A stretch of 64,000 nucleotides of DNA, taken from an uncultured Bacteroides sp. GTDB taxonomy: Bacteria > Bacteroidota > Bacteroidia > Bacteroidales > Bacteroidaceae. Made by a program: the position numbers and the translations under genes. The notes under the pieces are model-generated. The model was not told the origin of the DNA and made no database searches. It worked only from the letters and a program-made list of their open reading frames with translations. Positions 5,913 to 55,049 of the stretch are shown here, one piece after another (position 1 is the first letter of the stretch; each line of letters opens with the position of its first letter). The stretch is from the NCBI GenBank assembly GCA_902388365.1, contig CABMPB010000002.1:242683-306682 (forward strand). Direction: 5' to 3'.

Positions 5913-8225
5913 TTACAGACGGTTCATTTCCTCATTGGCGGCACCTGTTCCACGGTATTTGCTACGGGTGGAGTTGAATTTGTATCGCACGCTGAGCTGA
6001 ATGTTGCGGGTATCACTGTAATTCCATTTTTCAAACTGCATGCAGTCACCATAGATAATGTAGGAACTGCGTTGTGAGGCAAAAATATCATTTACGTGCA
6101 GGTTCACGTTCAATCGCTCATCCATGAAAGTCTTGTTCAGGCTTATGTTTACGCCTTGGTTGGGCTTCATCAGCATAATGCTGGTGTTTCCTTTGGTGCT
6201 ATAGAACATAGTTAGGTTTCCTGTAAATGTTTTGCTGAAACGGAAATTGTTATCCAGCCTTCCGCTGAAAATGGGTCGGTTGAAGTGTTTCCACTCTCCC
6301 ATCGTTATATTCTTGAAAAATGGTTGTTGCATTTGCAGGCTGAGGGAAGGTTCCCAAATGCCGAACTTGGGAGAAAGTACCAATCCTGTGTTCAATTCTT
6401 CTATCTTGTCGAAGTTCTTGCGGGTGAACAGGGTGATGGCAGGGTTCTTGTCGTATGATTCGGCTACAAACTCTATGGCATCCCGTCGTTGCTGGTAGCT
6501 GACAAACAGTTGTATCCATTGGTAGCTGCCCATTAAGGTGATGTCGTGAATTGTTGCGGGCTTTAGGTTGGGATTTCCTCCTTCATAGGTAAATCGGTCG
6601 TCGTATTGCAGGTTGCTGCTTAGTTCGTTGTAAGACGGTCGTCGGGTTTTGGCAGTGTAACTCAGTGAGAGTTGGGTTTTGCCTACGGGCATGGCCAGGG
6701 AAATATTGGGAAACAAATTGTCATAGTTCCGGCTTTGTTCCTCTACTCGTTTGCCTTTATCCAGATATTCGGAAGTGACGTGTTCGTAACGAAGACCTGC
6801 TGATGCCTGCAATTGACCCAGTGCAATGGCAAATTCGGCAAAGCCTGCCAGTTTTTCTTCTTTTATTTTATTGTCTGTTTCGGGCAGGTAGTTTTGCGGG
6901 TTTTCATAACGGCTGATGCGGCGGGTGTTGCTATATTCGGCTCCTGCTTTCAGTTCTCCTTTTCCTATGGGGTGGGTAAGGACAAGTTTGGCGGCATACA
7001 GGCGATTGTCATTCAGGTTGCTGGTGGTGACGTGGCGGTCTTCGTATTCTTCGCTGGTTTCCAGTACGTTTTGATATTGGCGTGTTTCTCCGCTGTAATA
7101 GTCGGCATTGAAGTCGATACCTAGTTTTCCTACTGTACCCAGGTAGTAAGCGTTGACGCGATGTGAGAAATCGTTATTATTCCAGTCATAGTCATAGTGC
7201 TGGCGGTCGTAGAAGTTTCCGTTGGCGGCAATTTCGTAATCGGAAGTCATGTCCAGATGGGTTTTGGGGCTGCGGCCGAATGTGTAACGCGCTCCCAGCG
7301 AATGGTTGCTGTCAATCATATAATTGAATCCGCCTTCTGTGTTGAGCGAGTAGCTGATGGCGTTCATGTCCATTTCCGAACGATGGTTCCAGGTGGTGTC
7401 CACTTCAATGTAGTGTTTGTCTTTTTGTTCCTGATAGTTGCCCATGCGCGAGAAGTAGAAGTTGGCGAACACGTCCAATCCTCCGTGACGGTAGTTCATG
7501 TTCAGTTGTTCGTAGTGGTTAAAGTTATGATCTTGAATGATTCCGGCATTTACGTTGGTGCTGAATCCTTCTCCTTGTGGTTTCACGGTCTTTATCTTGA
7601 TGACCGATTTTACGGTTACGTCATACTCCGCTCCGGGGTTGGTAATTACTTCTACGCTTTGTATATCTTTGGAACTCAGACGGGCAAGTTCGCTGAGGTC
7701 ACGCAGTTGGCGTCCGTTGAGATAGATGAGTGGCGTACCTTTTCCAAACACGGTGAAGTCGCCATTATCTCCTTGTACAAAAGGGATATGGGTTAATACG
7801 TCATTGGCTGTTCCGGCTGTGCTGAGCAGTGAGTTGGCGACGTTGGTAACGAGGGCATTTCCTTTCATCTTATAGGTGGGGCGGTGGGCGGTGATGACGG
7901 TTTCCTGTAAAGTGACTGCATCGGATTTCAGAATTAAGGTTCCTATATGGCCTGATTGGCAATTCTTATAGGTCGTTTCATATCCCACGGAGGATGCTTT
8001 CAGAATATAGGTTTTACCGTTTACTTTGTCTATGGTAAAATCTCCGTTTGTGTTAGTGACTGTTCCTTGTATGAAAGTGGAGTCGCCGGGATTCAATAAT
8101 ACTACATTGGCATATTCCAACGGAGTATGGGTTTCGTCCGTCAGTTTTCCGGTGATGGTTTGTGCTTGTGTGGCGATTGTGGCTCCTGCAAATAGGGTTG
8201 CAAATAGTAATTTTACTGTTTTCAT
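5913..8225 (-). CDS. TonB-dependent outer-membrane receptor (N-terminal carboxypeptidase-regulatory-like domain, plug and beta-barrel; no STN domain)
   Basis: 770 aa with a signal peptide, a CarbopepD_reg-like Ig domain (GTVTNTNGDFTI), plug motifs (PLIYLNGRQ, ITNPGAEYD) and a C-terminal Tyr/Asn/Gly-rich barrel. It is a paralogue of the receptor at 39556-42132. Confidence 0.8.
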   Translation of the reverse strand: MKTVKLLFATLFAGATIATQAQTITGKLTDETHTPLEYANVVLLNPGDSTFIQGTVTNTNGDFTIDKVNGKTYILKASSVGYETTYKNCQSGHIGTLILKSDAVTLQETVITAHRPTYKMKGNALVTNVANSLLSTAGTANDVLTHIPFVQGDNGDFTVFGKGTPLIYLNGRQLRDLSELARLSSKDIQSVEVITNPGAEYDVTVKSVIKIKTVKPQGEGFSTNVNAGIIQDHNFNHYEQLNMNYRHGGLDVFANFYFSRMGNYQEQKDKHYIEVDTTWNHRSEMDMNAISYSLNTEGGFNYMIDSNHSLGARYTFGRSPKTHLDMTSDYEIAANGNFYDRQHYDYDWNNNDFSHRVNAYYLGTVGKLGIDFNADYYSGETRQYQNVLETSEEYEDRHVTTSNLNDNRLYAAKLVLTHPIGKGELKAGAEYSNTRRISRYENPQNYLPETDNKIKEEKLAGFAEFAIALGQLQASAGLRYEHVTSEYLDKGKRVEEQSRNYDNLFPNISLAMPVGKTQLSLSYTAKTRRPSYNELSSNLQYDDRFTYEGGNPNLKPATIHDITLMGSYQWIQLFVSYQQRRDAIEFVAESYDKNPAITLFTRKNFDKIEELNTGLVLSPKFGIWEPSLSLQMQQPFFKNITMGEWKHFNRPIFSGRLDNNFRFSKTFTGNLTMFYSTKGNTSIMLMKPNQGVNISLNKTFMDERLNVNLHVNDIFASQRSSYIIYGDCMQFEKWNYSDTRNIQLSVRYKFNSTRSKYRGTGAANEEMNRL

Positions 8226-8467
8226 CTTTATCTTTTTTTGTTTGTTATTTCTTGTGGGTGGGTAACTGTTTACCCGGTTACCCGTTATTATTCCTTGGTT
8301 TGCTATAAGAGATGCAATTACTGTGCCAAGAAATGTTAGTTGTTGATTATCAGTGTGTTGTTAGTTTATGTGTAATAGCCGATAATTCAGTTGGGAAAAT
8401 AATTACTCAAATGTGGGTAAATTGTTACTTGAATTCATATCTTTGGAGAAACATAGCAATAGAAAAC

Positions 8468-9331
8468 ATGAAGGAGCAAGGAGAAATTATATTATATCAG
8501 CCGGATGAAATGGTGAAGTTGGAAGTTCGGTTGGAAAATGAAATGATTTGGTTGACACAAGCACAAATAGCCAATTTATTTGGAGTAAAGCAACCGGCTA
8601 TATCTAAACATCTGAAGAATATTTTTGAAAGTGGAGAGTTAGAAGAAAATTCAGTTTATTCCATTTTGGAATATACTGCTGTTGACGGGAAGATATACAA
8701 TACTAAATTTTATAATTTAGATGCTATCCTTTCTGTTGGATATCGTGTTAATAGTAAGAATGCAACTTTATTCCGTCAATGGGCAAACAGAGTTTTGAAA
8801 GATTATTTATTGAAAGGTTATTCTATTAATCAACATTTGAATATTATTGAACAGAAAATGGACACTAAGTTTGCTCTCCATGAAACTCAAATAGCTGAGT
8901 TGAATGAGAAAGTGGATTTCTTTGTTCGTACTTCTCTTCCTCCTGTCGAAGGAGTATTCTTTGAAGGTCAGATATTTGATGCATACGTTTTTGTCACTAA
9001 TTTAATAAAGACTGGCAAGAAATCTTTAGTTTTAATTGATAACTATGTGGATGAAACCGTATTGCTTATGCTATCTAAACGAAATCCAAAAGTAACTGCT
9101 ACAATTTATACTCAACAAATAACTCCGCAATTCCAATTGGATTTGAAACGGCATAATAATCAATATCCTCCTATTAATGTGAAGATATGTAAGCAATCGC
9201 ATGATCGTTTCTTAATAATAGATGGGGAAAAACTTTATCATATTGGTGCTTCCCTGAAAGATTTAGGTAAGAAATGGTTTGCTTTTTCACAACTGTATAT
9301 AGATATAAAAGATATTTTGAACAAATTATAA
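8468..9331 (+). CDS. RhuM-family (virulence protein RhuM / Fic-related) protein
   Basis: The conserved RhuM N-terminus is present (IILYQPDEMVKLEVRLENEMIWLTQAQIANLFGVKQPAISKHLKNIFESGEL). The start is placed at the internal ATG 8468 (MKEQGEII) because the 5' extension of the track ORF looks non-coding. Confidence 0.75.
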   Translation: MKEQGEIILYQPDEMVKLEVRLENEMIWLTQAQIANLFGVKQPAISKHLKNIFESGELEENSVYSILEYTAVDGKIYNTKFYNLDAILSVGYRVNSKNATLFRQWANRVLKDYLLKGYSINQHLNIIEQKMDTKFALHETQIAELNEKVDFFVRTSLPPVEGVFFEGQIFDAYVFVTNLIKTGKKSLVLIDNYVDETVLLMLSKRNPKVTATIYTQQITPQFQLDLKRHNNQYPPINVKICKQSHDRFLIIDGEKLYHIGASLKDLGKKWFAFSQLYIDIKDILNKL

Positions 9332-9336
9332 TTATC

Positions 9337-10575
9337 ATGTTCCATCTCTTTTCTACCCCCCATCATATAGAGCTAAAGCAACTCTTGTCAGAGTTTAATC
9401 GTTCACTGATGTTGATTGCCGACAGGCAATTGCTGATAAAGAATTTCTTGTCGAAAGTAAGCCAGATAACTCCGGTGGAAAGTATCTCTTTATTCCTGTC
9501 CGACGAAAGTACGGAGAAGTATAAGGAACAGGGGACGGAAGAAAAGAATCCTCCTTATTTCTCGGGTAGGGGGAAACTGGTGAGCTGGCTGGCGGTCAAT
9601 GAACGTCCGTTGATTGTTTCGGAAAGTCCCTCGCTACTCTCCTATTTTTCAGAGGAAGAACAGGAAGTGTTGAAGCGGTTGAAGGCAGAAATAGTCTATC
9701 CCTTGAATGTGATGAACCGCATCAGTGGCATATTGGTAATGGGTAAGAAAGTGAATGGAAAGAGATTCGGGAAGCAAGAATTGGAATTACTTTCCCTATT
9801 ATTAGGACAAGCCGCTTTTGCCATAGAACATGCTTCACTGTATGAAATCCAGCGTGACCGCCTGAAACGGATGTATCGCACAGACCGCCTGGCAGTGCTG
9901 GGCGAATTGGCTGCCGGAGCAGCGCACGAAATAAAGAATCCGTTGACTTCCATCCGTAGCACCATTCAATATTTAAGTTCTGATTTTGATCCGGACACAG
10001 AGAAAGGACAGATGATGCACGAGTTACTGAATGAAACGGAACGCATCAACAAGATTGTGCAAGGATTGCTTTCTTTTGCCCGTCCATCGGAATTGAATAC
10101 TACGGAAGTCAACTTGGAACAATTAATTAACCAGACATTGCTACTTATCAACAACACGTTAAAGAAGCAACAGGTAGAAGTGGAATTTGAATATTTCACC
10201 GAGGAAACGACTATCATGGGTGATGCCGAACAGTTGAAACAAGTCTGTCTCAACATTATTCTGAATGCAGTGGAAGCCATGAAGGGAAATGATGAATCTC
10301 ACCCGCGTACCTTATATATAAGTATGGAACACGGAGCAATGATTGATGCCCGTAGCCGTTACCTGCTACTCTCATTTGAAGATACGGGCAAAGGCATTGA
10401 CGAAAAGAATATAGAGAATGTATTCAACCCTTTCTTTACCACCAAGGAAGAAGGAACAGGATTGGGACTTGCCATCTGTTATGGCATTATCAACCGGCAT
10501 AAAGGCGAACTGGAAGTTCGCAGCACTCCCGGAAAAGGCACATGTTTTACCATTAAACTCCCTCAACACGTATGA
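9337..10575 (+). CDS. Cytoplasmic sensor histidine kinase (GAF-like sensor, HisKA and HATPase_c)
   Basis: H-box GELAAGAAHEIKNPLTSI and ATP-lid G-boxes (FNPFFTTK, GTGLGLAI) are present. There are no TM segments. The start is placed at ATG 9337, and the stop overlaps the response regulator start. Confidence 0.8.
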   Translation: MFHLFSTPHHIELKQLLSEFNRSLMLIADRQLLIKNFLSKVSQITPVESISLFLSDESTEKYKEQGTEEKNPPYFSGRGKLVSWLAVNERPLIVSESPSLLSYFSEEEQEVLKRLKAEIVYPLNVMNRISGILVMGKKVNGKRFGKQELELLSLLLGQAAFAIEHASLYEIQRDRLKRMYRTDRLAVLGELAAGAAHEIKNPLTSIRSTIQYLSSDFDPDTEKGQMMHELLNETERINKIVQGLLSFARPSELNTTEVNLEQLINQTLLLINNTLKKQQVEVEFEYFTEETTIMGDAEQLKQVCLNIILNAVEAMKGNDESHPRTLYISMEHGAMIDARSRYLLLSFEDTGKGIDEKNIENVFNPFFTTKEEGTGLGLAICYGIINRHKGELEVRSTPGKGTCFTIKLPQHV

Positions 10576-11924
10576 AAGGAAAAGTATTGATAGCGGATGA
10601 TGAACCGCGTATCCGCAAGATAATGAGCCTTCTGCTGACGCAGGAAGGGTATGAAGTAAAATCAGTAACCAATGGCAAGGAAGCTGTGACGGAAGCCGCA
10701 TCATTCCATCCCGATGTGATACTTTTGGACCAGCAGATGCCCGTAATGACCGGAATGGAGGCGTTGGAGAAGATACAGGCGGCGCGTCCCAATCAGGTAA
10801 TGATATTGATAACCGCTTTTGGAACTATTTCGCTGGCGGTAGATGCCGTAAAGAAAGGTGCATACGACTTTATAGAAAAGCCTTTTGACAATGATGATTT
10901 ATTGTTGAAAGTAAAACGGGCCATGGAGCATAGCCATTTGAAGGGGGAGCTCCGCCAACTGAAGAAACGCTTGGGCGAAGGGGAGCGTCCCATTATAGGC
11001 AGTGAAGGAGGACTTCGCACCGTTATGGAGCAAGTAAACCGTGTGGCAAAGACCGAAGCCACTGTATTTATTCATGGAGAAAGCGGAACGGGAAAAGAAT
11101 TAATAGCCCGTGCGGTGCATGTCCGCAGCAGGCGTTCCGAGCAACCTTTTGTGGCTATAAACTGCGGCGCCATTCCTCTTACATTGATAGAAAATGAGTT
11201 GTTCGGACATGAAAAGGGCGCTTTTACGGATGCAAAAGAGGCGCAACCGGGTATCTTTGAGCAAGCGGAGGGCGGTACGCTTTTTCTGGATGAAATAGGT
11301 GAATTGCCTATGGATGCACAAGTAAAATTGCTGCGTGTATTGGAAGAACGGAAGGTAACCCGCATTGGCGGAACCAGACTGATTCCTGTCAATGTGCGTA
11401 TAGTGGCGGCCACCAATCGTGATTTGGAATCGGAAGTAAAGACCGGTAATTTCCGCCTTGATTTATTATATCGTTTGAATGTGTTTACCTTAGAACTTCC
11501 TCCGCTACGCGAACGCAAGGAAGATATTCCTTTATTGGCTGATTTCTTTATCCGGAAACACAATGAGGTTTTGAATCTATCTGTAAAAAGTATAACTCCT
11601 GCGGCTATGGACCGGCTTTGTGCTTATGACTGGCCGGGGAATATCCGCGATTTGGAGAATGCTATTCAAAGTGCTATGATTCTTTGCCTGGATGGAATGA
11701 TTGATGTGCAGCAACTACCTGCGCGTATTAAAGGATATGAACAAAGTGATTCTTCCATTACTTTGGGAGACAGTAATGATATTAGGGAAGTAAATGCACA
11801 GGTGGAAAAAGAATTGATACAAGAGACACTGAAGAAATTTGGGGACAACCGCACACTGACTGCTGAGGCTTTGAATATAAGCCGAAAGACTTTGTTTAAT
11901 AAGATGAAGAAGTATGGGTTGTAA
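10572..11924 (+). CDS. Sigma-54-dependent response regulator (NtrC/Fis family: REC, AAA+ sigma-54 activator and HTH)
   Basis: Receiver residues DDEPRIR and LLDQQMP, sigma-54 interaction motifs GESGTGKE and GAFTDA (GAFTGA-like), and a C-terminal Fis-type HTH. It overlaps the histidine kinase gene by 4 bp. Confidence 0.9.
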   Translation: MKGKVLIADDEPRIRKIMSLLLTQEGYEVKSVTNGKEAVTEAASFHPDVILLDQQMPVMTGMEALEKIQAARPNQVMILITAFGTISLAVDAVKKGAYDFIEKPFDNDDLLLKVKRAMEHSHLKGELRQLKKRLGEGERPIIGSEGGLRTVMEQVNRVAKTEATVFIHGESGTGKELIARAVHVRSRRSEQPFVAINCGAIPLTLIENELFGHEKGAFTDAKEAQPGIFEQAEGGTLFLDEIGELPMDAQVKLLRVLEERKVTRIGGTRLIPVNVRIVAATNRDLESEVKTGNFRLDLLYRLNVFTLELPPLRERKEDIPLLADFFIRKHNEVLNLSVKSITPAAMDRLCAYDWPGNIRDLENAIQSAMILCLDGMIDVQQLPARIKGYEQSDSSITLGDSNDIREVNAQVEKELIQETLKKFGDNRTLTAEALNISRKTLFNKMKKYGL

Positions 11925-11996
11925 GAGGTATGTGTATTGTTTATTATTACAAAATTAGGAGTGCTAGTTGCATTATAGGAAAGTCGGAATGAGCAA

Positions 11997-12492
11997 AGTT
12001 CTGAAGGAACTATATTTCACCTTAAATTGTTGTTTACCAATGAAATAATAAAAGACTGATAGAAGCGGTATATTGCCTGTAGTAACCTAAAAGTAGGCTT
12101 CCAAACAATGATTTCTATTTTATTTCTACTTAATAGTCCTTTATATACCCTATCTTCTTTGCAAAAAGAGAAGGCTAAGCAATAGAACAATAGAAATCAG
12201 AAGTAAATATGCTATACGGTGATGAATAAGATAAAATTAAAATTCTACCTTTTTTCTACTATAAATACCAATAGAAATAAGCAATAAAACAAAAATTTAA
12301 CTCGCAAAATTCATAAAATTATAAAAGTTTCATGAGTTACCTATTAATTATTGATCGAAAATAGATTGATATTCAATAAGAAATAACAGGAACAACGAAA
12401 AAAACTTTTCTTTAAGGCTTGAGTTATTAAAATTTATCATATATTTGTGCAGTTAATCTAAATCAGATTGAGAATGTAGTTCCTTCAGAACT
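11997..12492. promoter_or_regulatory. Candidate invertible (phase-variable) promoter segment flanked by inverted repeats
   Basis: IR-L AGTTCTGAAGGAACT (11997-12011) and its exact reverse complement IR-R AGTTCCTTCAGAACT (12478-12492) extend to 17 bp (AAGTTCTGAAGGAACTA). They bound a 466-bp AT-rich ORF-less segment containing a TAtaTTTG -7 box at about 12441-12448 oriented towards susC (start 12534). Confidence 0.35.
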
Positions 12493-12533
12493 TGGAGCCT
12501 CTATACTCTCAGTAAACCTTAAAATTAATAATT

Positions 12534-15500
12534 ATGTTAAAACGACTGAAATCTGTCAGTATGTTATTATTCCTTGGAAGTTTATTCTCGGGAACAATCT
12601 CTACAATTATGGCTTCCGGAGTAAACTCCTCAGCCATTGTACAACAAACGGAAACATGTAAAGGTGTGGTCAAGGACGCTACAGGCGAGTCCGTTATTGG
12701 TGCTTCAGTAGTTGTAAAAGGTACAACAAACGGAACGATCACCGACTTCGATGGTAATTTTAGCCTTGATGGAGTGAAAAAGGGAGATATGATCATAATC
12801 TCTTATGTGGGCTATCAAACTCAAGAAATTAAATGGAATGGCGGTTCACTGAATGTTATTTTGAAAGAAGATTCAAAAACATTGAGCGAAGTTGTCGTAG
12901 TAGGTTATGGTACACAGAAAAAAGTAAACCTCTCGGGTTCTGTGGCTATGGTGGATAGTAAAGAATTGGAGAATCGTCCTATTCAGAACGTATCCAGCGG
13001 TTTGCAAGGTTTGATGCCGGGTGTTACTATTACAGGAACCAATGGTGCGCCGGGACAGGATGCCGGTAAAATCCGTGTTCGTGGTATCGGTACTTTGAAT
13101 GAGGCCGGTCCGTATATCTTAGTGGATGGAATAGAAACCGGTACTTTGAGTGCTGTCGATCCCAATGATATTGAAAGTATTTCTGTGTTGAAAGATGCCG
13201 CTTCTGCCGCAATCTACGGTTCTAAAGCTGCCAATGGTGTTGTTTTGATTACAACAAAGCGTGGTAAGACTGGAGAAACAAAAGTATCATATAGCGGCTA
13301 TTTGAGTTTCCAGAACGCAACGAATATGATTGAGCGTATGGGTTCTTATGAATATGCTTCCCTGTTGAATAAGGCATTGGAAGCAGAAGGTATGGCAAAA
13401 CGCTTCGATGATACCGAGCTGCAAAAGTTCAAAGCCGGAAATGATCCGCTTTATCCGGACACGGATTGGTATGACCTGGCCTATAAGACCGGTGTTCAGC
13501 ATCGCCATAATATCAATATCAACGGCGGTTCCGAAAATGTGAAGTATATGGCTTCATTGGGTTATCTGAATCAGACCGGTATTTTGCCGAATGCAGGCCG
13601 TGAACAATTCAATGCCCGTACAAATCTGGATATGAAGATCAATGAACGTTTAAGTGCGCGCATGAACTTATCTTATATTAAGAATCAGTATAGCGATGCC
13701 AGTTCTGCCTATGCCGGCGGTAGTTCGGATCAGATTATCCGCCAGTTAAATTTGATTGCTCCCTGGATTGTTGCCCGGTATGACGATGGTACCTGGGGAA
13801 CTATTTCGGATGGTAGCCCCATTGCCTGGTTGGATTCGGGCATGAAGGTAAACCGCGACAATTATAACTTTTCGGGAATGGCTGCCGTGGATTATAAAAT
13901 CATGGATGGTTTGAAACTGACTTTGCAGGGTGCATATGTAAACAATTTGCAGAACTACAGTTATTTCCAGAAATACATCAAGTATAATGAGAATAAAGAA
14001 TCAGACCCTAACCAATTGGATGAACGTTACTATAAATGGGATCGTACAAACTATGACGCGTTGCTGAATTATGATAAGAGTTTTGGCAAGCATAATATCA
14101 AGGGCTTATTGGGTTGGCACACAGAAAAATACAACTATAAGTATCAGAAAGCCGTGCGTAAGAAATTCCCCAATAATGAATTGACGGATATGAATGCCGG
14201 AGATGCTTCTACTCAAAGCAACGAAGGTTATTCGGCAGAACTGGCAATGATTTCATGGTTTGCCCGTGTCAATTATGATTTTGCAGGCAAGTATCTTTTG
14301 GAAGCCAATATCCGTTCGGATGCTTCTTCTCGTTTTGCAGAAGGTCACCGTTGGGGATATTTCCCTTCATTCTCGGGTGCATGGCGCATCAGTGAAGAAG
14401 CATTTATGGAAGGTGTAAGAGATAGCTGGTTGTCAAGCTTGAAGATTCGCGCTTCCTGGGGGCAGTTAGGTAATCAGGATGCATTAAGTGGTACCAATAA
14501 TGACTATTATCCGGCATTGAATACTTATAATCTGGATTCTAAATATGCATTCGGAGGTTCTTTGAATTCCGGTTATTATCAGCGGAAATACCGTTTGGAA
14601 ACCATCTCATGGGAAAAGGCATCTACTTGGGGTATCGGTGTTGACTTTACTTTATTCAACAAGTTGAATGGTTCTATTGATTATTATAATCGTAAGACTA
14701 CCGACATCATTATGGATGTAACGGTTCCTGAAGAATTTGCATTGGATGCTTACAAGGACAATGTAGGCTCTATGAGAAATAGTGGTGTAGAAATAAACTT
14801 GAGCTACAATACCCAAATAGGTCAGGTTGACTTTGGAATCGCAGGTAATTTCTCTTATAATAAGAACAAGATCCTTGATTTGGGAGGCGGTGATCCTGAT
14901 AAATACCTGGATGCTTCGGGTGGTTACAATCAGCGTAATAAAGTAGGTGAAGCTATGAACTCATACTTTATTTATAGAGCAGACGGTTTCTTCAATTCTC
15001 AGGAAGAAGCAGATGCTTATACCGAAAAATATGGTAATCCTTTCGGCAAGAAGTTTAAAGCCGGTGACTTGCGTTATGTAGATACAAACAAAGATGGTAA
15101 GCTGACGGCTGAAGACCGTGAATATTGTGGTAGCTCGGATCCTAAGATTACTTATGGTTTCAATATTAATGCAGGCTGGAAAGGTTTTGACCTGTCATTG
15201 ATGTTTAATGGTGCTGCCGGTGTAAAGAGATTGTTTGACGGATATGAAGTTTATGGTAACTTCTCGGGTGATGCTGCCCATCCGTCTACTATATGGAGAG
15301 ATGCTTGGACACCCGAGAATCATAATGCTTCCATGCCGCGTATTTTCTATGATACAAATTCTCCCAGTAGCAGCCGTTCCGTGCAATCTGATTTCTGGTT
15401 GCAGAATACAAGCTACTTGCGCCTCAAGAACCTGCAGTTAGGATATACATTACCAAAGAAGTGGTTGAATGCCGTCGGTGTTGATAATATCCGCATTTAC

Positions 15501-15629
15501 TACTCTGTAGAAAACTTGTTGACTTTTGATAATATGAAAATTAATATTGATCCTGAAGCAACCAGTCAACGCTTGTCTTCTTATCCGTTGCTGCGCACTC
15601 ATGCATTCGGTATTAATATAGCATTCTGA
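12534..15629 (+). CDS. SusC/RagA-family TonB-linked outer-membrane protein
   Basis: 1031 aa with a signal peptide, a CarbopepD_reg domain (GTITDFDGNFSL), a TonB box/plug (VVVGYGTQKK, ISVLKDAASAAIYGSKAANGVVLITTK), a SusC-type barrel and a C-terminal aromatic residue. Confidence 0.95.
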   Translation: MLKRLKSVSMLLFLGSLFSGTISTIMASGVNSSAIVQQTETCKGVVKDATGESVIGASVVVKGTTNGTITDFDGNFSLDGVKKGDMIIISYVGYQTQEIKWNGGSLNVILKEDSKTLSEVVVVGYGTQKKVNLSGSVAMVDSKELENRPIQNVSSGLQGLMPGVTITGTNGAPGQDAGKIRVRGIGTLNEAGPYILVDGIETGTLSAVDPNDIESISVLKDAASAAIYGSKAANGVVLITTKRGKTGETKVSYSGYLSFQNATNMIERMGSYEYASLLNKALEAEGMAKRFDDTELQKFKAGNDPLYPDTDWYDLAYKTGVQHRHNININGGSENVKYMASLGYLNQTGILPNAGREQFNARTNLDMKINERLSARMNLSYIKNQYSDASSAYAGGSSDQIIRQLNLIAPWIVARYDDGTWGTISDGSPIAWLDSGMKVNRDNYNFSGMAAVDYKIMDGLKLTLQGAYVNNLQNYSYFQKYIKYNENKESDPNQLDERYYKWDRTNYDALLNYDKSFGKHNIKGLLGWHTEKYNYKYQKAVRKKFPNNELTDMNAGDASTQSNEGYSAELAMISWFARVNYDFAGKYLLEANIRSDASSRFAEGHRWGYFPSFSGAWRISEEAFMEGVRDSWLSSLKIRASWGQLGNQDALSGTNNDYYPALNTYNLDSKYAFGGSLNSGYYQRKYRLETISWEKASTWGIGVDFTLFNKLNGSIDYYNRKTTDIIMDVTVPEEFALDAYKDNVGSMRNSGVEINLSYNTQIGQVDFGIAGNFSYNKNKILDLGGGDPDKYLDASGGYNQRNKVGEAMNSYFIYRADGFFNSQEEADAYTEKYGNPFGKKFKAGDLRYVDTNKDGKLTAEDREYCGSSDPKITYGFNINAGWKGFDLSLMFNGAAGVKRLFDGYEVYGNFSGDAAHPSTIWRDAWTPENHNASMPRIFYDTNSPSSSRSVQSDFWLQNTSYLRLKNLQLGYTLPKKWLNAVGVDNIRIYYSVENLLTFDNMKINIDPEATSQRLSSYPLLRTHAFGINIAF

Positions 15630-15657
15630 TTTATATAGACTTTAAAAGATTTGAACT

Positions 15658-17295
15658 ATGAAATATTTGAAACAATATATGATAATGGGAGCAGCAATGA
15701 TGATTACATCTTGTTCTGACTTCCTGGATACGGCTCCGCTGGATGCCCTGTCTCCTGCTACTACCTGGAAAACCGAGGATGATGCCCAGAAATTTGCTAT
15801 CGGGTGTTATGGTGGTAATAATGATGATACTTCCAGTTGGGAAGATGGTGGTAATATCTTATATCTGGATTGCGGATCGGATTTTGGCTTTAATAACTTT
15901 GAATGGGAAAACTATAAAACCATTGGTAACGGTGCAATGACTCCGTCGGGATCTGTGGCAAGTTTCTATGACTTCTCAGTGATCCGCCGTTGTAACACAT
16001 TCCTGGAAAAAGTAAAGGATATTCCGTTCTCCAGTGAGCAGGCTAAGACGGATTTGATAGGTCAGGTTCGTACCATTCGCGCTTATCGTTACTTTGTAAT
16101 GAACTGGTGGTATGGCGGTGTGCCTATTATTGATAACTATGATTCTGCGGATGAGGCTAAAGTTCCCCGTAAATCGGAAGAGGAAGTGAAGACTTTTGTT
16201 AATAGCGAATTGGATACTGCCATTGGCGAACTGAATGCTGTTCCATCCGAAAGGGGACGTTTTGCAAAGGGGGCTGCTATGGCTATCAGGATGCGTAGTG
16301 CATTGTATTATGGTGATTATGCGAAAGCAAAGGAAATGGCCGAGGCTATCATTAACCTGAAACAATATGCTTTGGAACCGGACTATAATAACTTATTTAA
16401 AGTTGCCGGTCAGGATTCAAAGGAAATTATTCTGGCTGTTCAGTATGTAAATTCCACTTTGGAATTGGGTACAATAGGTCAGATGTATAATAATGGTGAT
16501 GGTGGTTGGTCTTCTATCGTTCCTACCCAAAACTTGGTAGATATTTATGAAATGGCGGATGGTTTGACCAAGGAAGAATCTTCCTCTTATGATCCGGCTC
16601 ACCCGTTTGCCGGTCGTGACCCGCGTATGGCAATGACCATTATATATCCAGGTATGGACTGGAATGGTGCTATTGTTAATACATTGGATAAAACGATCAA
16701 TGGTAAAGATAATGCAAACTATCCTCCTTCTGCAAATAATGCCTCAAAGACAGCTTTAACTTGGAGAAAATATTTGGATGAACAATATACCAATGGCATT
16801 TGGAATACGAATGCTTGTCCTATTGTGATTCGTTATGCAGAAGTGTTGCTTACTTATGCGGAAGCTGCCAATGAACTTACAGGGCCGTCTGCAGATGTTT
16901 ATGATAAGTTGGATCTTATTCGGGAGCGTGTAGGAATGCCGAAGGTGGATCGTACCAAATATGCATCAAAAGAGGCATTGCGCCAGTTAATACGTAGAGA
17001 GCGTGGTGTTGAACTGGCCGGTGAAGGAGTACGCCGTGCAGATATTTTGCGTTGGAAAGACGATAGTGGCAAGATGGTTGCCGAAACAGTATTGAATGGT
17101 GTGCTGGAACGCATTGTGGGTACTGTGAATTACAGTGAAACCGATCCGACCAAACGTGCGGTAATTGATGTGAATGCCGCTGCTACTGATAAAAAGGTGG
17201 AAGATCGTGTATTTAAGCCTTATAATCGGTATAACCCTATTCCACAAGGGGCAATTGATAATAATCCGAGCTTAAAGCAGAATCCAGAGTATTAG
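15658..17295 (+). CDS. SusD/RagB-family nutrient-binding outer-membrane lipoprotein
   Basis: 545 aa with a lipoprotein signal ending in Cys (MITSCSDFL) and SusD-like TPR helices. It lies immediately downstream of susC. Confidence 0.9.
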   Translation: MKYLKQYMIMGAAMMITSCSDFLDTAPLDALSPATTWKTEDDAQKFAIGCYGGNNDDTSSWEDGGNILYLDCGSDFGFNNFEWENYKTIGNGAMTPSGSVASFYDFSVIRRCNTFLEKVKDIPFSSEQAKTDLIGQVRTIRAYRYFVMNWWYGGVPIIDNYDSADEAKVPRKSEEEVKTFVNSELDTAIGELNAVPSERGRFAKGAAMAIRMRSALYYGDYAKAKEMAEAIINLKQYALEPDYNNLFKVAGQDSKEIILAVQYVNSTLELGTIGQMYNNGDGGWSSIVPTQNLVDIYEMADGLTKEESSSYDPAHPFAGRDPRMAMTIIYPGMDWNGAIVNTLDKTINGKDNANYPPSANNASKTALTWRKYLDEQYTNGIWNTNACPIVIRYAEVLLTYAEAANELTGPSADVYDKLDLIRERVGMPKVDRTKYASKEALRQLIRRERGVELAGEGVRRADILRWKDDSGKMVAETVLNGVLERIVGTVNYSETDPTKRAVIDVNAAATDKKVEDRVFKPYNRYNPIPQGAIDNNPSLKQNPEY

Positions 17296-17325
17296 TACAA
17301 TATATTAAAAAGGATTTCAGGAACT

Positions 17326-17403
17326 ATTCTCTATTTATGGTGAGAATAGAGGTCTAAAAGAATGGTCAGCCAACGTAGAAATATAAAGTTGGTTGGCCAT
17401 TGT
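17326..17403 (+). terminator. Two tandem stem-loops downstream of susD
   Basis: CTATTCTC-loop-GAGAATAG (17326-17353) and AATGGTCAGCCAAC-loop-GTTGGTTGGCCATT (17362-17403). Confidence 0.4.
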
Positions 17404-17546
17404 TTGTTCTAAGCTGTAAATAATAAGTGAATATTCTTGAGAAATGAGATAAGTCTGTTCTGTCTTTTGAAAACATGTTTTTGGCTTCAATACTTTTCAT
17501 TTCCATTTTTATGTTATATCTTTGAGTTAATTAGAACGGATAGCGT

Positions 17547-22650: not shown

Positions 22651-22659
22651 AGCGTTGCC

Positions 22660-22754
22660 GTCCACCGTAGGGGCAGATTGAATCTGCCCGATAACATCCC
22701 AATGGTATATCTGTGGATGCATTCGGGCGGATTCAATCCGCCCCTACGGTGGAC
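22660..22754. repeat. GTAGGGGC double-hairpin palindromic element, copy at the tricorn protease 3' end
   Basis: GTCCACCGTAGGGGCAGATTGAATCTGCCC...GGGCGGATTCAATCCGCCCCTACGGTGGAC. Each arm is itself a hairpin. It lies 40 bp downstream of the protease stop on the minus strand. Confidence 0.6.
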
Positions 22755-22796
22755 GGCTTACCTTAAACAATTAATTCAAAACCATTTCGACATGCT

Positions 22797-38548: not shown

Positions 38549-39478
38549 TTATTTAACCTGCCGATAAACCACCTCCGAAATATCTGCAATGATTTGTGAA
38601 CTCATTAACTCGCTCTCCTCCGAGTCTTTCACAAATACGGCAATGGTGTAGCGGTTTCCATTTGGGAGAAGAACGAAACCTATGTCGTTAGTTCCGATAA
38701 GTTGTCCTTTGGCGTTACGATCTCCTGTTCCGGTTTTATGCCCGATGATGGCTTCTGTTCCTTGCAATGGCCGGGCAAGCCGGTTCTTTCCGGTCTCGCA
38801 TTCGGTCAGGGTGCGCTTAATAAACTCTTGGTAGTCGTCGTTGAATAACTTCCGGGTGAGCAGGATTTCCATCAGGCGTGCGGCCTCCAATGGTGAGCTC
38901 CAGTTGTTGTAACATACATTCATATCCTGGTGCATATCATCTTCCGTTGCCACAATGGCAAATTGTTCTATGCCCAAAGAACGGATATAGTCATCGGCAA
39001 CTTTGGGACCGCCTATATAATTGAAAAGAATATCGCACGCATTATTATCGCTCAACTGAAGGGTATAAGTCAATAATTCGCTGATAGGTAGCGAAATATT
39101 TCCTTCCGGGAATTTATCACGTAGCGGACTGTAGGTGTTTGTTTTCAAATCCTCTTTGGTGATTTTGATTTCTGTACTGAGAGGCAGGTTATTCTGTTGG
39201 AGATAATTGGCAACAGCCAATGCCTGATAGAACTTGAAAACGCTCATCATGGGATAAGGGCGGTCATTATTTATGATGATGGTATCTTTTCCATTCAGAA
39301 TAACGGCTACTCCTACTTGTGCTTTCTTATTTTCGATGATTTTACGGATAGAGGCCTCTAAGTTTACTTCCTTTGAGGTATCGGAAGCTGTATTCCCTAT
39401 CTCTAAAGTAGCTTGGGAATATCCTCCAAGAGAATAAACAGCTACAAGTATCCATATAATGAAAAATCTTATATTCAT
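38549..39478 (-). CDS. Class A beta-lactamase, CepA-like (Bacteroides chromosomal cephalosporinase family)
   Basis: 309 aa with a signal peptide. All class A catalytic motifs are intact: S70xxK (MMSVFKF), S130DN (QLSDNNACD), the E166..N170 omega loop (ATEDDMHQDMN) and K234TG (GHKTGTG). Recalled similarity to the B. fragilis CepA sequence (recalled, not aligned). Confidence 0.9.
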   Translation of the reverse strand: MNIRFFIIWILVAVYSLGGYSQATLEIGNTASDTSKEVNLEASIRKIIENKKAQVGVAVILNGKDTIIINNDRPYPMMSVFKFYQALAVANYLQQNNLPLSTEIKITKEDLKTNTYSPLRDKFPEGNISLPISELLTYTLQLSDNNACDILFNYIGGPKVADDYIRSLGIEQFAIVATEDDMHQDMNVCYNNWSSPLEAARLMEILLTRKLFNDDYQEFIKRTLTECETGKNRLARPLQGTEAIIGHKTGTGDRNAKGQLIGTNDIGFVLLPNGNRYTIAVFVKDSEESELMSSQIIADISEVVYRQVK

Positions 39479-39499
39479 TGGTTTTATAATTATTGTTCT

Positions 39500-39545
39500 G
39501 CCGGATGCAAAAGTAACAATTTGATTATAAAGCGCAATGAATATA
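39500..39545 (-). promoter_or_regulatory. Putative own promoter of bla (TActTTTG -7 box)
   Basis: On the minus strand TACTTTTG lies about 30 nt upstream of the bla ATG (plus-strand CAAAAGTA at 39508-39515). Confidence 0.25.
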
Positions 39546-39555
39546 AGATAACTAT

Positions 39556-53369: not shown

Positions 53370-53746
53370 ATTCTTTCCTTTTATATAATGAGTGCTCAAA
53401 GTTAGGAATTTATTTCTTAATTCGGGCTATAAAAGGACAATAAAAAAGGAAGAGAACTTCACAGTTGTCTTCCCCTATTTTTTTAACCTAAACCTTAACT
53501 ATGAAAAAATCTAATGTTTTTCAGAAGCAAATATGCGAATTAATATGATACGTTGGTAACGTAAACGGTTTTTTTGTTCACGGTTTATAATTATTTAACT
53601 CTTTGCGCTGTTTATGGGGCATTTATAGCATCATATTACCTGTTGTGGTCTAAATTCCTTCAAAAGCTTCATGGGCTTATAACATTTTGTTTATGAGTGT
53701 CTTATCATGAAGAAATATTTTGTGATTCCTTCATAAATGATCAATA

Positions 53747-53925
53747 ATGATTCAAAGCAAAAACACCCGCCATTGTTTTTGGAAACACCCGCCGTTGTTT
53801 GGGAAAACAATGGCCATTGTTTTTCGCGGTCCATAAGACACCGGGAAGTGCTTCGTAACACACCGGGAAACTACAGTATCGCGGTGTGTTACGGAGTGTT
53901 TCCTGGTGTGAAACCGAAGGTATCT
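53747..53925. repeat. ~170-bp multi-hairpin intergenic repeat element, copy 2 (inverted relative to copy 1)
   Basis: AAACAATGGCCATTGTTTTT palindrome units, CGTAACACACCGGG..CGCGGTGTGTTACGG hairpin and GGTGTGAAACC. It is about 80% identical to the reverse complement of 22470-22650. Confidence 0.6.
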
Positions 53926-53957
53926 CACCGAGGTACAGACCGGACAAAACACCTGCA

Positions 53958-54030
53958 TCTTACTAACGATGAGGCCGAAAGATTACTAATGACGAGGGCG
54001 AGTCATTACTAATGATACGGCTTACCCATT
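53958..54030 (+). repeat. About 3.3 tandem copies of a 23-bp direct repeat (CTTACTAACGATGAGGCCGAAAG / ATTACTAATGACGAGGGCGAGTC / ATTACTAATGATACGGCTTACCC / ATTACTGA...)
   Basis: Read directly from the sequence. It lies 75-150 bp upstream of the AraC-family gene start. Confidence 0.55.
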
Positions 54031-54104
54031 ACTGATCCATTTATGAAGGAATTGGAATATATTTGTTCATGATAACTATCTTATAATCAAATTGTTATTG
54101 GCAA

Positions 54105-55049
54105 ATGACGGATTTGAAGGAAAATACATGGACTGAAGATATTCTTGTGCACCCATTATTGACTATCTTTGCAAAAAGTATGATTATGAATTCCATCCCC
54201 CGGTATAAATTTTATAAAACGAAGTATGGTGAGGAGCTTTTGATAGATGTAGTAACCTTGGACAGCATTCGCCCTTATATCAATAAGACTCCGGTGCACA
54301 CCTTGTCTTATTTTGATATCACCTTTATAACCGGTGGCTCCGGACATTTATCCATTGCCGATGAACAGTTTTCCCTTTGCCAAGGGGATATTATATTTTC
54401 CAGACCCGGAGAAATACGGGCGTGGAATGCAGAGAACCTTCCGCAAGGCTATGCGCTTATCTTTGAAGAAGAATTCCTGCTCTCATTCTTTAACGACCCT
54501 TCTTTTATACAAAACCTTTCTTACTTTAACAGAGATAGAGCTTCTGCCAGACTGAACATTACAAATATATATTCCCGAATTGAAAGTCTGATCCGGAATA
54601 TTATATCCGAAATAAACAACGAGCACTCCAGGGACAAACATATTTTGCGTGCCTTGCTGTATGAGATGCTGATGCTTCTCAACCGCGAATATTCAAAAAG
54701 CTACAACGCCATCGAAGGAAAATCTTCAAATAGATATATAGATCATTTTATCAAATTAGTCGATCGGGATTTCAGAACCCATCATGACACTGCATACTAT
54801 GCCAATGAACTATGTATCACCCCCAACTATCTGAATGAACTAGTCCAGAAAACAATGAATACCAGCCCTAAAAGCTATATTCAGAATAGAATAATCCAAG
54901 AAGCAAAAACATTGCTGGCTTATACCAGCCTGTCCGTATCCGAGGTGGCAGACAGACTGAGTTTTGAAAACCCTTCATACTTTATACGGTTATTCCGCCG
55001 GCAGATCCGGTTGACCCCTTTGCAATATCGGCATAGCATCATTCGTTGA
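54105..55049 (+). CDS. AraC-family transcriptional regulator
   Basis: 314 aa with an N-terminal cupin-like sensing domain and C-terminal dual HTH AraC signatures (YYANELCITPNYLNELVQK; SVSEVADRLSFENPSYFIRLFRR). Confidence 0.9.
   Translation: MTDLKENTWTEDILVHPLLTIFAKSMIMNSIPRYKFYKTKYGEELLIDVVTLDSIRPYINKTPVHTLSYFDITFITGGSGHLSIADEQFSLCQGDIIFSRPGEIRAWNAENLPQGYALIFEEEFLLSFFNDPSFIQNLSYFNRDRASARLNITNIYSRIESLIRNIISEINNEHSRDKHILRALLYEMLMLLNREYSKSYNAIEGKSSNRYIDHFIKLVDRDFRTHHDTAYYANELCITPNYLNELVQKTMNTSPKSYIQNRIIQEAKTLLAYTSLSVSEVADRLSFENPSYFIRLFRRQIRLTPLQYRHSIIR

Follow-up and report, generated by a model that had tools for sequence, protein, structure and literature searches.

A 466-bp putative promoter segment upstream of a SusC/SusD gene pair in an uncultured Bacteroides is found in both orientations in public assemblies

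The 64-kb window, i.e., the whole stretch of DNA from an uncultured Bacteroides sp. that was analyzed here, contains an adjacent pair of genes encoding a SusC-family TonB-dependent transporter and a SusD-family lipoprotein, preceded by an intergenic region (11925–12533) in which a short non-coding segment lies between inverted repeats (Table 1). Genes for a GAF histidine kinase and a sigma-54-type response regulator precede this region, and a terminator-like hairpin follows susD; 3′ of the hairpin are an unrelated gene for a 285-residue protein, a yitT-family gene and leuS. Judged by this arrangement, susC and susD would be the first and second genes of a switched operon, and the hairpin probably marks the end of both the switched transcription unit and a conserved cassette. 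Homology to related loci stops in the hairpin region, at position 17392 in a related Bacteroidaceae metagenome-assembled genome (L001) and at 17422 in two same-locus contigs (L088 and L090). No terminator was detected by a simple scanner in the interval from the response-regulator gene to susC, and there are no rRNA, tRNA or Rfam matches in the window. The reading made from the sequence alone (hereafter the sequence-only reading) had described the SusC/SusD pair as sigma-54-adjacent, and a sigma-54-type regulator is indeed encoded upstream; the implied regulatory link fell away, since the intergenic region contains no sigma-54 -24/-12 element (TGGCAC-N5-TTGCT with at most 3 mismatches and a GG/GC core), and nothing therefore ties the neighboring regulator to susC. 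Further upstream, an ORF at 8312–9331, with only a partial Pfam match to RhuM, varies between strains (variable part 8429–9336): the window, L084, L095, L098 and L099 have it, and it is missing from L085, L096 and L097, in which a TonB-dependent receptor gene is followed more closely by the gene for the kinase.

Table 1 Features of the switch locus and its surroundings, with repeat pairs found 5′ of related susC genes (positions refer to the window)
Feature	Position	Strand	Description
GAF histidine kinase gene	9274/9337–10575	+	Upstream; same strand as susC
Sigma-54-type response-regulator gene	10572–11924	+	Upstream; same strand as susC
Left inverted repeat (IRL)	11996–12012	.	AAGTTCTGAAGGAACTA; recombination site; inversion junction lies inside it in every inverted assembly
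Invertible segment interior	12013–12476 (466 bp as 12012–12477)	.	AT-rich; orientation in the window assigned as ON
Putative Bacteroides-type promoter	12419–12448	+	Partial -33 cTTG (12418–12421), 18-nt gap, -7 box TATATTTGT; faces susC
Right inverted repeat (IRR)	12477–12493	.	TAGTTCCTTCAGAACTT; its end lies 40 nt 5′ of the susC start codon
susC-family TonB-dependent transporter gene	12534–15629	+	1031 aa; Pfam CarbopepD_reg_2 and Plug; source name SusC/RagA family protein
susD-family lipoprotein gene	15658–17295	+	545 aa; Pfam SusD_RagB (8.9e-58) and SusD-like_3
Terminator-like hairpin	17357–17410 (hairpin 17361–17401)	+	14-bp G+C-rich stem, then UUGUUUGUU; -23.7 kcal/mol, z = -7.4
Subclass A2 class A β-lactamase gene	38549–39478	-	Start overlapped by the 39466–39549 repeat
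Repeat pair, L009, Bacteroides UMGS963			AAGTTCTGTTAGAACTT; interior 279 bp
Repeat pair, L026, Phocaeicola sp.			AGTACTTCTAGAACTT; interior 257 bp
Repeat pairs, L016 and L019, Parabacteroides			AGTCTTGCTTAGACT; interior 207 and 193 bp, respectively
Repeat pairs, L006 and L007, P. barnesiae group			TTTTCTTAGAAAGA; interior 151 bp
Repeat pair, L008, uncultured Bacteroides sp. UMGS1595			TCTTATAAAGAGAAAT; interior 140 bp

The two repeats share a 15-bp core, AGTTCTGAAGGAACT at 11997–12011 and its reverse complement AGTTCCTTCAGAACT at 12478–12492, and the perfect inverted match comprises 17 bp, or 21 nt at 95% identity. IRL is built from 5-bp palindromic arms, AGTTC and GAACT, around the asymmetric 5-nt center TGAAG, and can equally be written as AGTT-CTGAAGG-AACT. 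The sequence-only reading had reported the core repeats at these coordinates, a length of 17 bp with flanks, and an interrupted palindrome of the form AGTTC-N5-GAACT in each copy, all of which was confirmed: no AGTTC-N5-GAACT sites other than IRL and IRR occur in the 64 kb, where 0.07 are expected by chance, and none of 100 shuffles contained two or more. For perfect inverted 16-mers spaced by 50–1500 bp, Markov simulations likewise give an expectation of 0.07 per window. The 17-bp repeat far exceeds chance.

Other inverted repeats were noted elsewhere in the window. An 18-bp perfect repeat (22657–22674 and 22740–22757) is contained within an extended nested palindrome, GTTGCCGTCCACCGTAGGGGCAGATTGAATCTGCCC...GGGCGGATTCAATCCGCCCCTACGGTGGACGGC (22655–22760), that is situated between leuS and the gene for a tricorn-like protease and looks like a REP/MITE-type hairpin. 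At 39466–39549, a 14-bp repeat (ATCTTATATTCATT / AATGAATATAAGAT) extends over the start codon and leader of the β-lactamase gene; a leader hairpin and a chance occurrence are both conceivable, about 0.8 such 14-mers being expected per window. A third observation concerns the 15-bp repeat TTCCTTCATAAATGA around a repeat-rich non-coding segment of about 290 bp (53725–54052), located 5′ of the gene for an AraC-family regulator (54105–55049) and with a TATATTTG box just outside. No inverted copy of this segment was found in the two public matches listed, and the homology of L092 to the window breaks at 53754, beside the left repeat; the segment may be another site of inversion or rearrangement, or could have arisen by chance.

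The interior of the segment upstream of susC is AT-rich, as had been proposed, with a GC content of 22–30% compared with 42.9% for the window as a whole, and reads as devoid of any convincing gene: the sole ORF of at least 50 residues is a 57-residue frame with a TTG start on the minus strand. Several copies of (C)AATAGAA(A/C) and its complement ATTTCTATT are scattered over 12109–12300 (at about 12111, 12186, 12196 and 12272). They could bind an accessory or regulatory protein, and might be a reason why the segment, which is probably longer than a bare promoter requires, so much exceeds that length. Near the right end of the segment, the -7 box at 12440–12448 fits the TANNTTTGY element of the Bacteroides promoter consensus (-33 TTTG / -7 TANNTTTGY; quoted in PMC8748976) and faces the downstream operon, and the accompanying -33 element is partial. 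The box is the single plus-strand occurrence of TAnnTTTG in 11925–12533. The earlier claim of a -7 box that points at susC is thereby upheld, its position, however, needs correction: TATATTTG is found at 12440–12447, one base 5′ of the 12441–12448 originally given, and it is separated from the ATG by about 86 nt and not by 42 bp, which is the distance between the right repeat and the ATG.

Assemblies of the same locus were retrieved by exact-protein look-up with SusC, SusD, the regulator, the kinase and the 285-residue protein, and by one metagenome DNA scan, and orientations were read from the consensus assemblies of different samples. The flanks in these assemblies are 98–100% identical to the window, and the forms designated OFF hold the segment inverted. 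JGI 3300055900 (L081) is ON and identical to the window over 8400 bp. In ENA ERZ28621076 (L082), which is OFF, 1300 of 1300 positions of the left flank and 5000 of 5000 of the right flank are identical, and the interior agrees with the reverse complement at all 466 of 466 positions; the Logan assembly of SRR28426730 (L094) is also OFF and contains the reverse complement of the interior with 0 mismatches. The window and these three assemblies make up lineage A, with two members (the window and L081) ON and two (L082 and L094) OFF. Lineage B, which is separated from the window by 9 interior SNPs and by about 15–18 SNPs per 2 kb of flank, is represented by ERZ28660418 (L085), which is ON, and OGHO01003320.1 (L083), which is OFF, the two interiors being exact mutual reverse complements. 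GCA_965347755.1 (L088) and ERZ27272542 (L089) are OFF, and the contig ERZ28579211 (L090) starts 39 nt inside an OFF-oriented segment. Counted by sample, 2 are ON and 6 are OFF, which is not a true ratio, as places with the same neighboring genes are omitted from the count. The invertible, phase-variable segment put forward from the sequence is thus matched by the exact reverse complement of 12012–12477 in public assemblies. An exact pattern of left flank and repeat gave 0 matches in a genome contig collection, and the representative genome of the species apparently lacks the cassette.

Both lineages are found in natural populations in either orientation without further differences, and inversion has therefore happened repeatedly; such recurrence marks a site-specific switch and speaks against a single rearrangement event. 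A T/G mismatch located 2 nt inside the repeat moves, in lineage A, with the interior, so that ACTATATT/AATGTAGT is converted to ACTACATT/AATATAGT, which places strand exchange within the 17-bp repeat. Near-palindromes such as AGTTC-N5-GAACT are also seen in many operators, and the repeats might accordingly be read as static sites for a dimeric transcription factor, with the opposite orientations being assembly artefacts. Such a reading is hardly credible, however, since the inverted form is present with exact junctions in six independent assemblies produced by different pipelines (ENA, NCBI, Logan and a metagenome record), and since both orientations occur in each of the two SNP lineages. Moreover, a repeat of 17–21 bp is shorter than the final k-mers of the usual assemblers, so inverted contigs should require reads that span the junctions. 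The metagenome contigs L001 and L090 break at or just inside the repeat, as would be expected of samples with mixed orientations.

The layout of repeat, promoter, repeat and susC recurs at orthologous susC genes in other species of Bacteroides, Phocaeicola and Parabacteroides. A scan for perfect repeat pairs of at least 12 bp, covering the 78 related susC loci whose upstream sequence was long enough, found such a pair directly 5′ of susC in several orthologues (Table 1). A TAnnTTTG box is located 13–30 nt 5′ of the right repeat in the repeat-bearing orthologues, and the repeat ends 28–94 nt before the ATG; a -7 box at the equivalent position is present in L009, L016, L019, L026, L006, L008 and L014. 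The arms of the sites are AGTNN/NNACT-like in most loci, and the spacers differ between species while being identical between the two copies at a locus. In L089, the central base is altered in both copies together (AGTTCTGAAAGAACT and AGTTCTTTCAGAACT), and this variant is also present at the contig end of L001. A second AGTTC-N5-GAACT-like site in L001, at position 6040, falls within a coding ORF and probably arose by chance. As observations that would count against inversion, the sequence-only reading had named the absence of the opposite orientation together with repeats that are unconserved in orthologous loci; inverted assemblies and orthologous repeat pairs both exist.

The nearest SusC relatives, in L001 and in P. 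vulgatus (L014), have 93% protein identity, and the nucleotide identity of susC-susD to the window is 85% for L001 and 83% for L014, so that the window belongs to a different Bacteroidaceae species. In P. vulgatus, the promoter is kept, with homology starting from window position 12427, and there are no repeats; within 5896–6000 of L014 the -7 box and leader are retained, and the repeat position is occupied by the degenerate TAGTTATTAAAATTT, which has no partner repeat. P. vulgatus appears to hold the homologous susC promoter in a fixed form that does not switch, and, as this promoter is without repeats, the gene pair does not strictly require phase variation.

The block 11925–17422, which comprises the switch, susC, susD and the terminator, is an insertion/deletion polymorphism between strains. 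L097 has 98% identical flanks and lacks the block; the regulator stop codon is followed by about 90 bp and then by an ECF sigma/FecR/SusC-STN cluster. In L090, the block is present and is followed by this same cluster, and in L088 an extra gene for a 511-residue sulfatase is inserted between window positions 17422 and 17478. Sulfatase genes are located 3′ of susD in L088, L006 and L008 and are only 28% identical among themselves, and the evidence tying sulfatases to the operon is weak. A homologous susC-susD block is found in other genomic contexts in P. vulgatus and L001. The strain variability and the differing contexts support, without proving, a modular and possibly mobile cassette. More tentatively, and with odds that we place clearly below even, the switch may belong to a discrete module of about 5.5 kb (IR, promoter, IR, susC, susD and terminator) that moves horizontally, or whose sites co-evolve with host invertases. 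The presence or absence of the module, its unrelated contexts, and sites with conserved arms and divergent spacers would point to a horizontally moving phase-variable receptor cassette or to such co-evolving sites. If this were true, P. vulgatus would hold a secondarily "locked-ON" derivative.

Terminal inverted repeats, AT richness, the absence of coding capacity and the presence or absence of the whole 11925–17422 block between strains would also suit a MITE inserted by chance in either orientation 5′ of susC. We regard this as very improbable: the flanks, GCAA on the left and TGGA on the right, show no target-site duplication, the segment is single-copy in the window, and both orientations occupy exactly the same position between identical flanks in two lineages. 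In orthologues from other genera, furthermore, repeats of different sequence take up the same position with respect to the promoter and the ATG, which is not in agreement with chance insertion.

With site-specific inversion as the preferred reading, the location and class of the enzyme can be considered. The sequence-only reading held that the invertase is not encoded in the window, and none of the 47 window ORFs of at least 90 residues contains a Phage_integrase or Resolvase domain; nor was a recombinase found in 22 ORFs flanking the orthologous repeat-bearing loci, within about 6 kb. The absence of a recombinase from the window and from the surroundings of the orthologous loci argues for an invertase that acts in trans. 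As to its class, the conserved arms with a free but copy-matched spacer suggest a tyrosine recombinase, for which such an arrangement would represent the core site, with the arms serving in binding and the spacer as a homology-dependent overlap region. Our best guess is a Tsr0667-like tyrosine recombinase. The consensus of Tsr0667, dating from 2009, is reportedly AGTYYYN4GDACT; both window repeats match it and are its sole matches in the window.

The recognition core of the serine invertase Mpi is ARACGTWCGT, and IRL is without an ACGT core of this type. This absence, the short conserved arms with copy-matched spacers of 5–7 nt, which is the classical layout of tyrosine-recombinase cores, and the similar AGTTCTG-starting repeat that adjoins a Tsr0667 homologue in B. 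thetaiotaomicron (see below) make it unlikely that the flip, although real, is catalyzed by a serine enzyme, i.e., an Mpi-like master invertase. In favor of the latter, no enzyme is visible at the locus, which would suit either class, and Mpi of B. fragilis is a trans-acting serine enzyme that serves 13 promoter regions (PMC4747536).

We thus favor, with a probability of roughly 93%, a simple invertible promoter, in which a recombinase encoded elsewhere, likely a tyrosine enzyme, flips the 466-bp segment and thereby turns susC-susD ON or OFF. The recombinase would pair the two 17-bp repeats, exchange strands inside them and invert the segment, and the population would become mixed, with the outer-membrane SusC/SusD pair displayed by only part of the cells; these parts of the mechanism are based on the observed inversions. 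The consequences for expression are based on the promoter consensus match and its conservation. In the orientation of the window, which would be ON, as the sequence-only reading also held, the single promoter of the segment is predicted to read through IRR into susC-susD and to continue to the hairpin at about 17400, so that IRR would sit in the transcribed 5′ leader of susC. In the flipped orientation, which would be OFF, the promoter would face the 3′ end of the response-regulator gene, leaving susC-susD without a promoter of its own and silent. Transcription of susC-susD would, in other words, depend on orientation. Selection for such switching would presumably come from pressure that nutrients, phages, bacteriocins or immunity exert on a surface protein.

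A short promoter segment with short inverted repeats, flipped by the tyrosine recombinases FimB and FimE, phase-varies a surface structure in the case of E. coli fimS (cited in PMC6083910). The window locus differs from fimS, which belongs to another phylum, has unrelated site sequences, and has its recombinases encoded beside the switch. It has the order IR, promoter, IR, operon in common with Bacteroidales invertons of the PhaseFinder type and with the Mpi-dependent promoters that invert at capsular-polysaccharide loci of B. fragilis and B. thetaiotaomicron, and it would share with them the ON/OFF logic and an enzyme that often acts in trans. Compared with the capsular-polysaccharide promoters, the repeat sequence is different, the enzyme class is probably different, and the target is a nutrient-uptake/surface-receptor pair instead of a glycan-synthesis operon.

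Tsr0667 of B. fragilis is the known tyrosine invertase that acts in trans on susC/susD clusters and on nine further regions (PMC4747536), where the Tsr0667-controlled regions of B. fragilis YCH46 are attributed to Nakayama-Imaohji et al. (2009, J Bacteriol 191:6003). The YCH46 regions resemble the window locus in their SusC/SusD targets and AGTTC...ACT-type repeats, with Tsr0667 as a master invertase in trans. The susC/susD loci of B. fragilis are described as being of the shufflon type, in which multiple inversions swap gene segments (PMC4747536); the window locus, in contrast, has one repeat pair, one susC/susD pair and no coding sequence in the inversion.

A further comparison is provided by B. 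thetaiotaomicron BT2260–BT2268, a phase-variable susCD locus with the recombinase BT2267 (bioRxiv 10.1101/2025.06.24.661302). The repeat of this locus, AGTTCTGCAAAGACT..., adjoins a Tsr0667 homologue, is reported to fit the Tsr0667 motif (bioRxiv 10.1101/2025.06.24.661302), and shares its first 7 bases (AGTTCTG) and the terminal ACT with the window repeat. In BT2260–BT2268 the repeat controls SusC/SusD paralogues, in parallel with the role proposed for the window repeats. However, BT2260–BT2268 has its own central recombinase and exchanges N-terminal coding segments of susC, whereas a local recombinase is absent from the window locus, whose inversion includes no coding sequence. A literal text search of the literature found no mention of the repeat sequences or the consensus, and large inverton catalogues (PhaseFinder, DeepInverton) may list this segment already.

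Taken together, the locus has all the sequence hallmarks of a genuine phase-variable inverton and is a well-supported additional case of the well-known class of invertible promoters in Bacteroidales; an inverton upstream of susC/susD introduces no new principle. What had been a guess from sequence is now documented, namely, that a common human-gut Bacteroidaceae species flips the putative promoter of one SusC/SusD outer-membrane pair, and most of the inspectable public assemblies caught the switch OFF. The set of orthologous sites, with conserved arms, free spacers matched between copies, and one concerted change, is useful for defining the recognition rules of the invertase. Such switches produce contig breaks and mis-annotation in metagenome assemblies, and they influence nutrient use and the susceptibility of the bacteria to phages, bacteriocins and host immunity.
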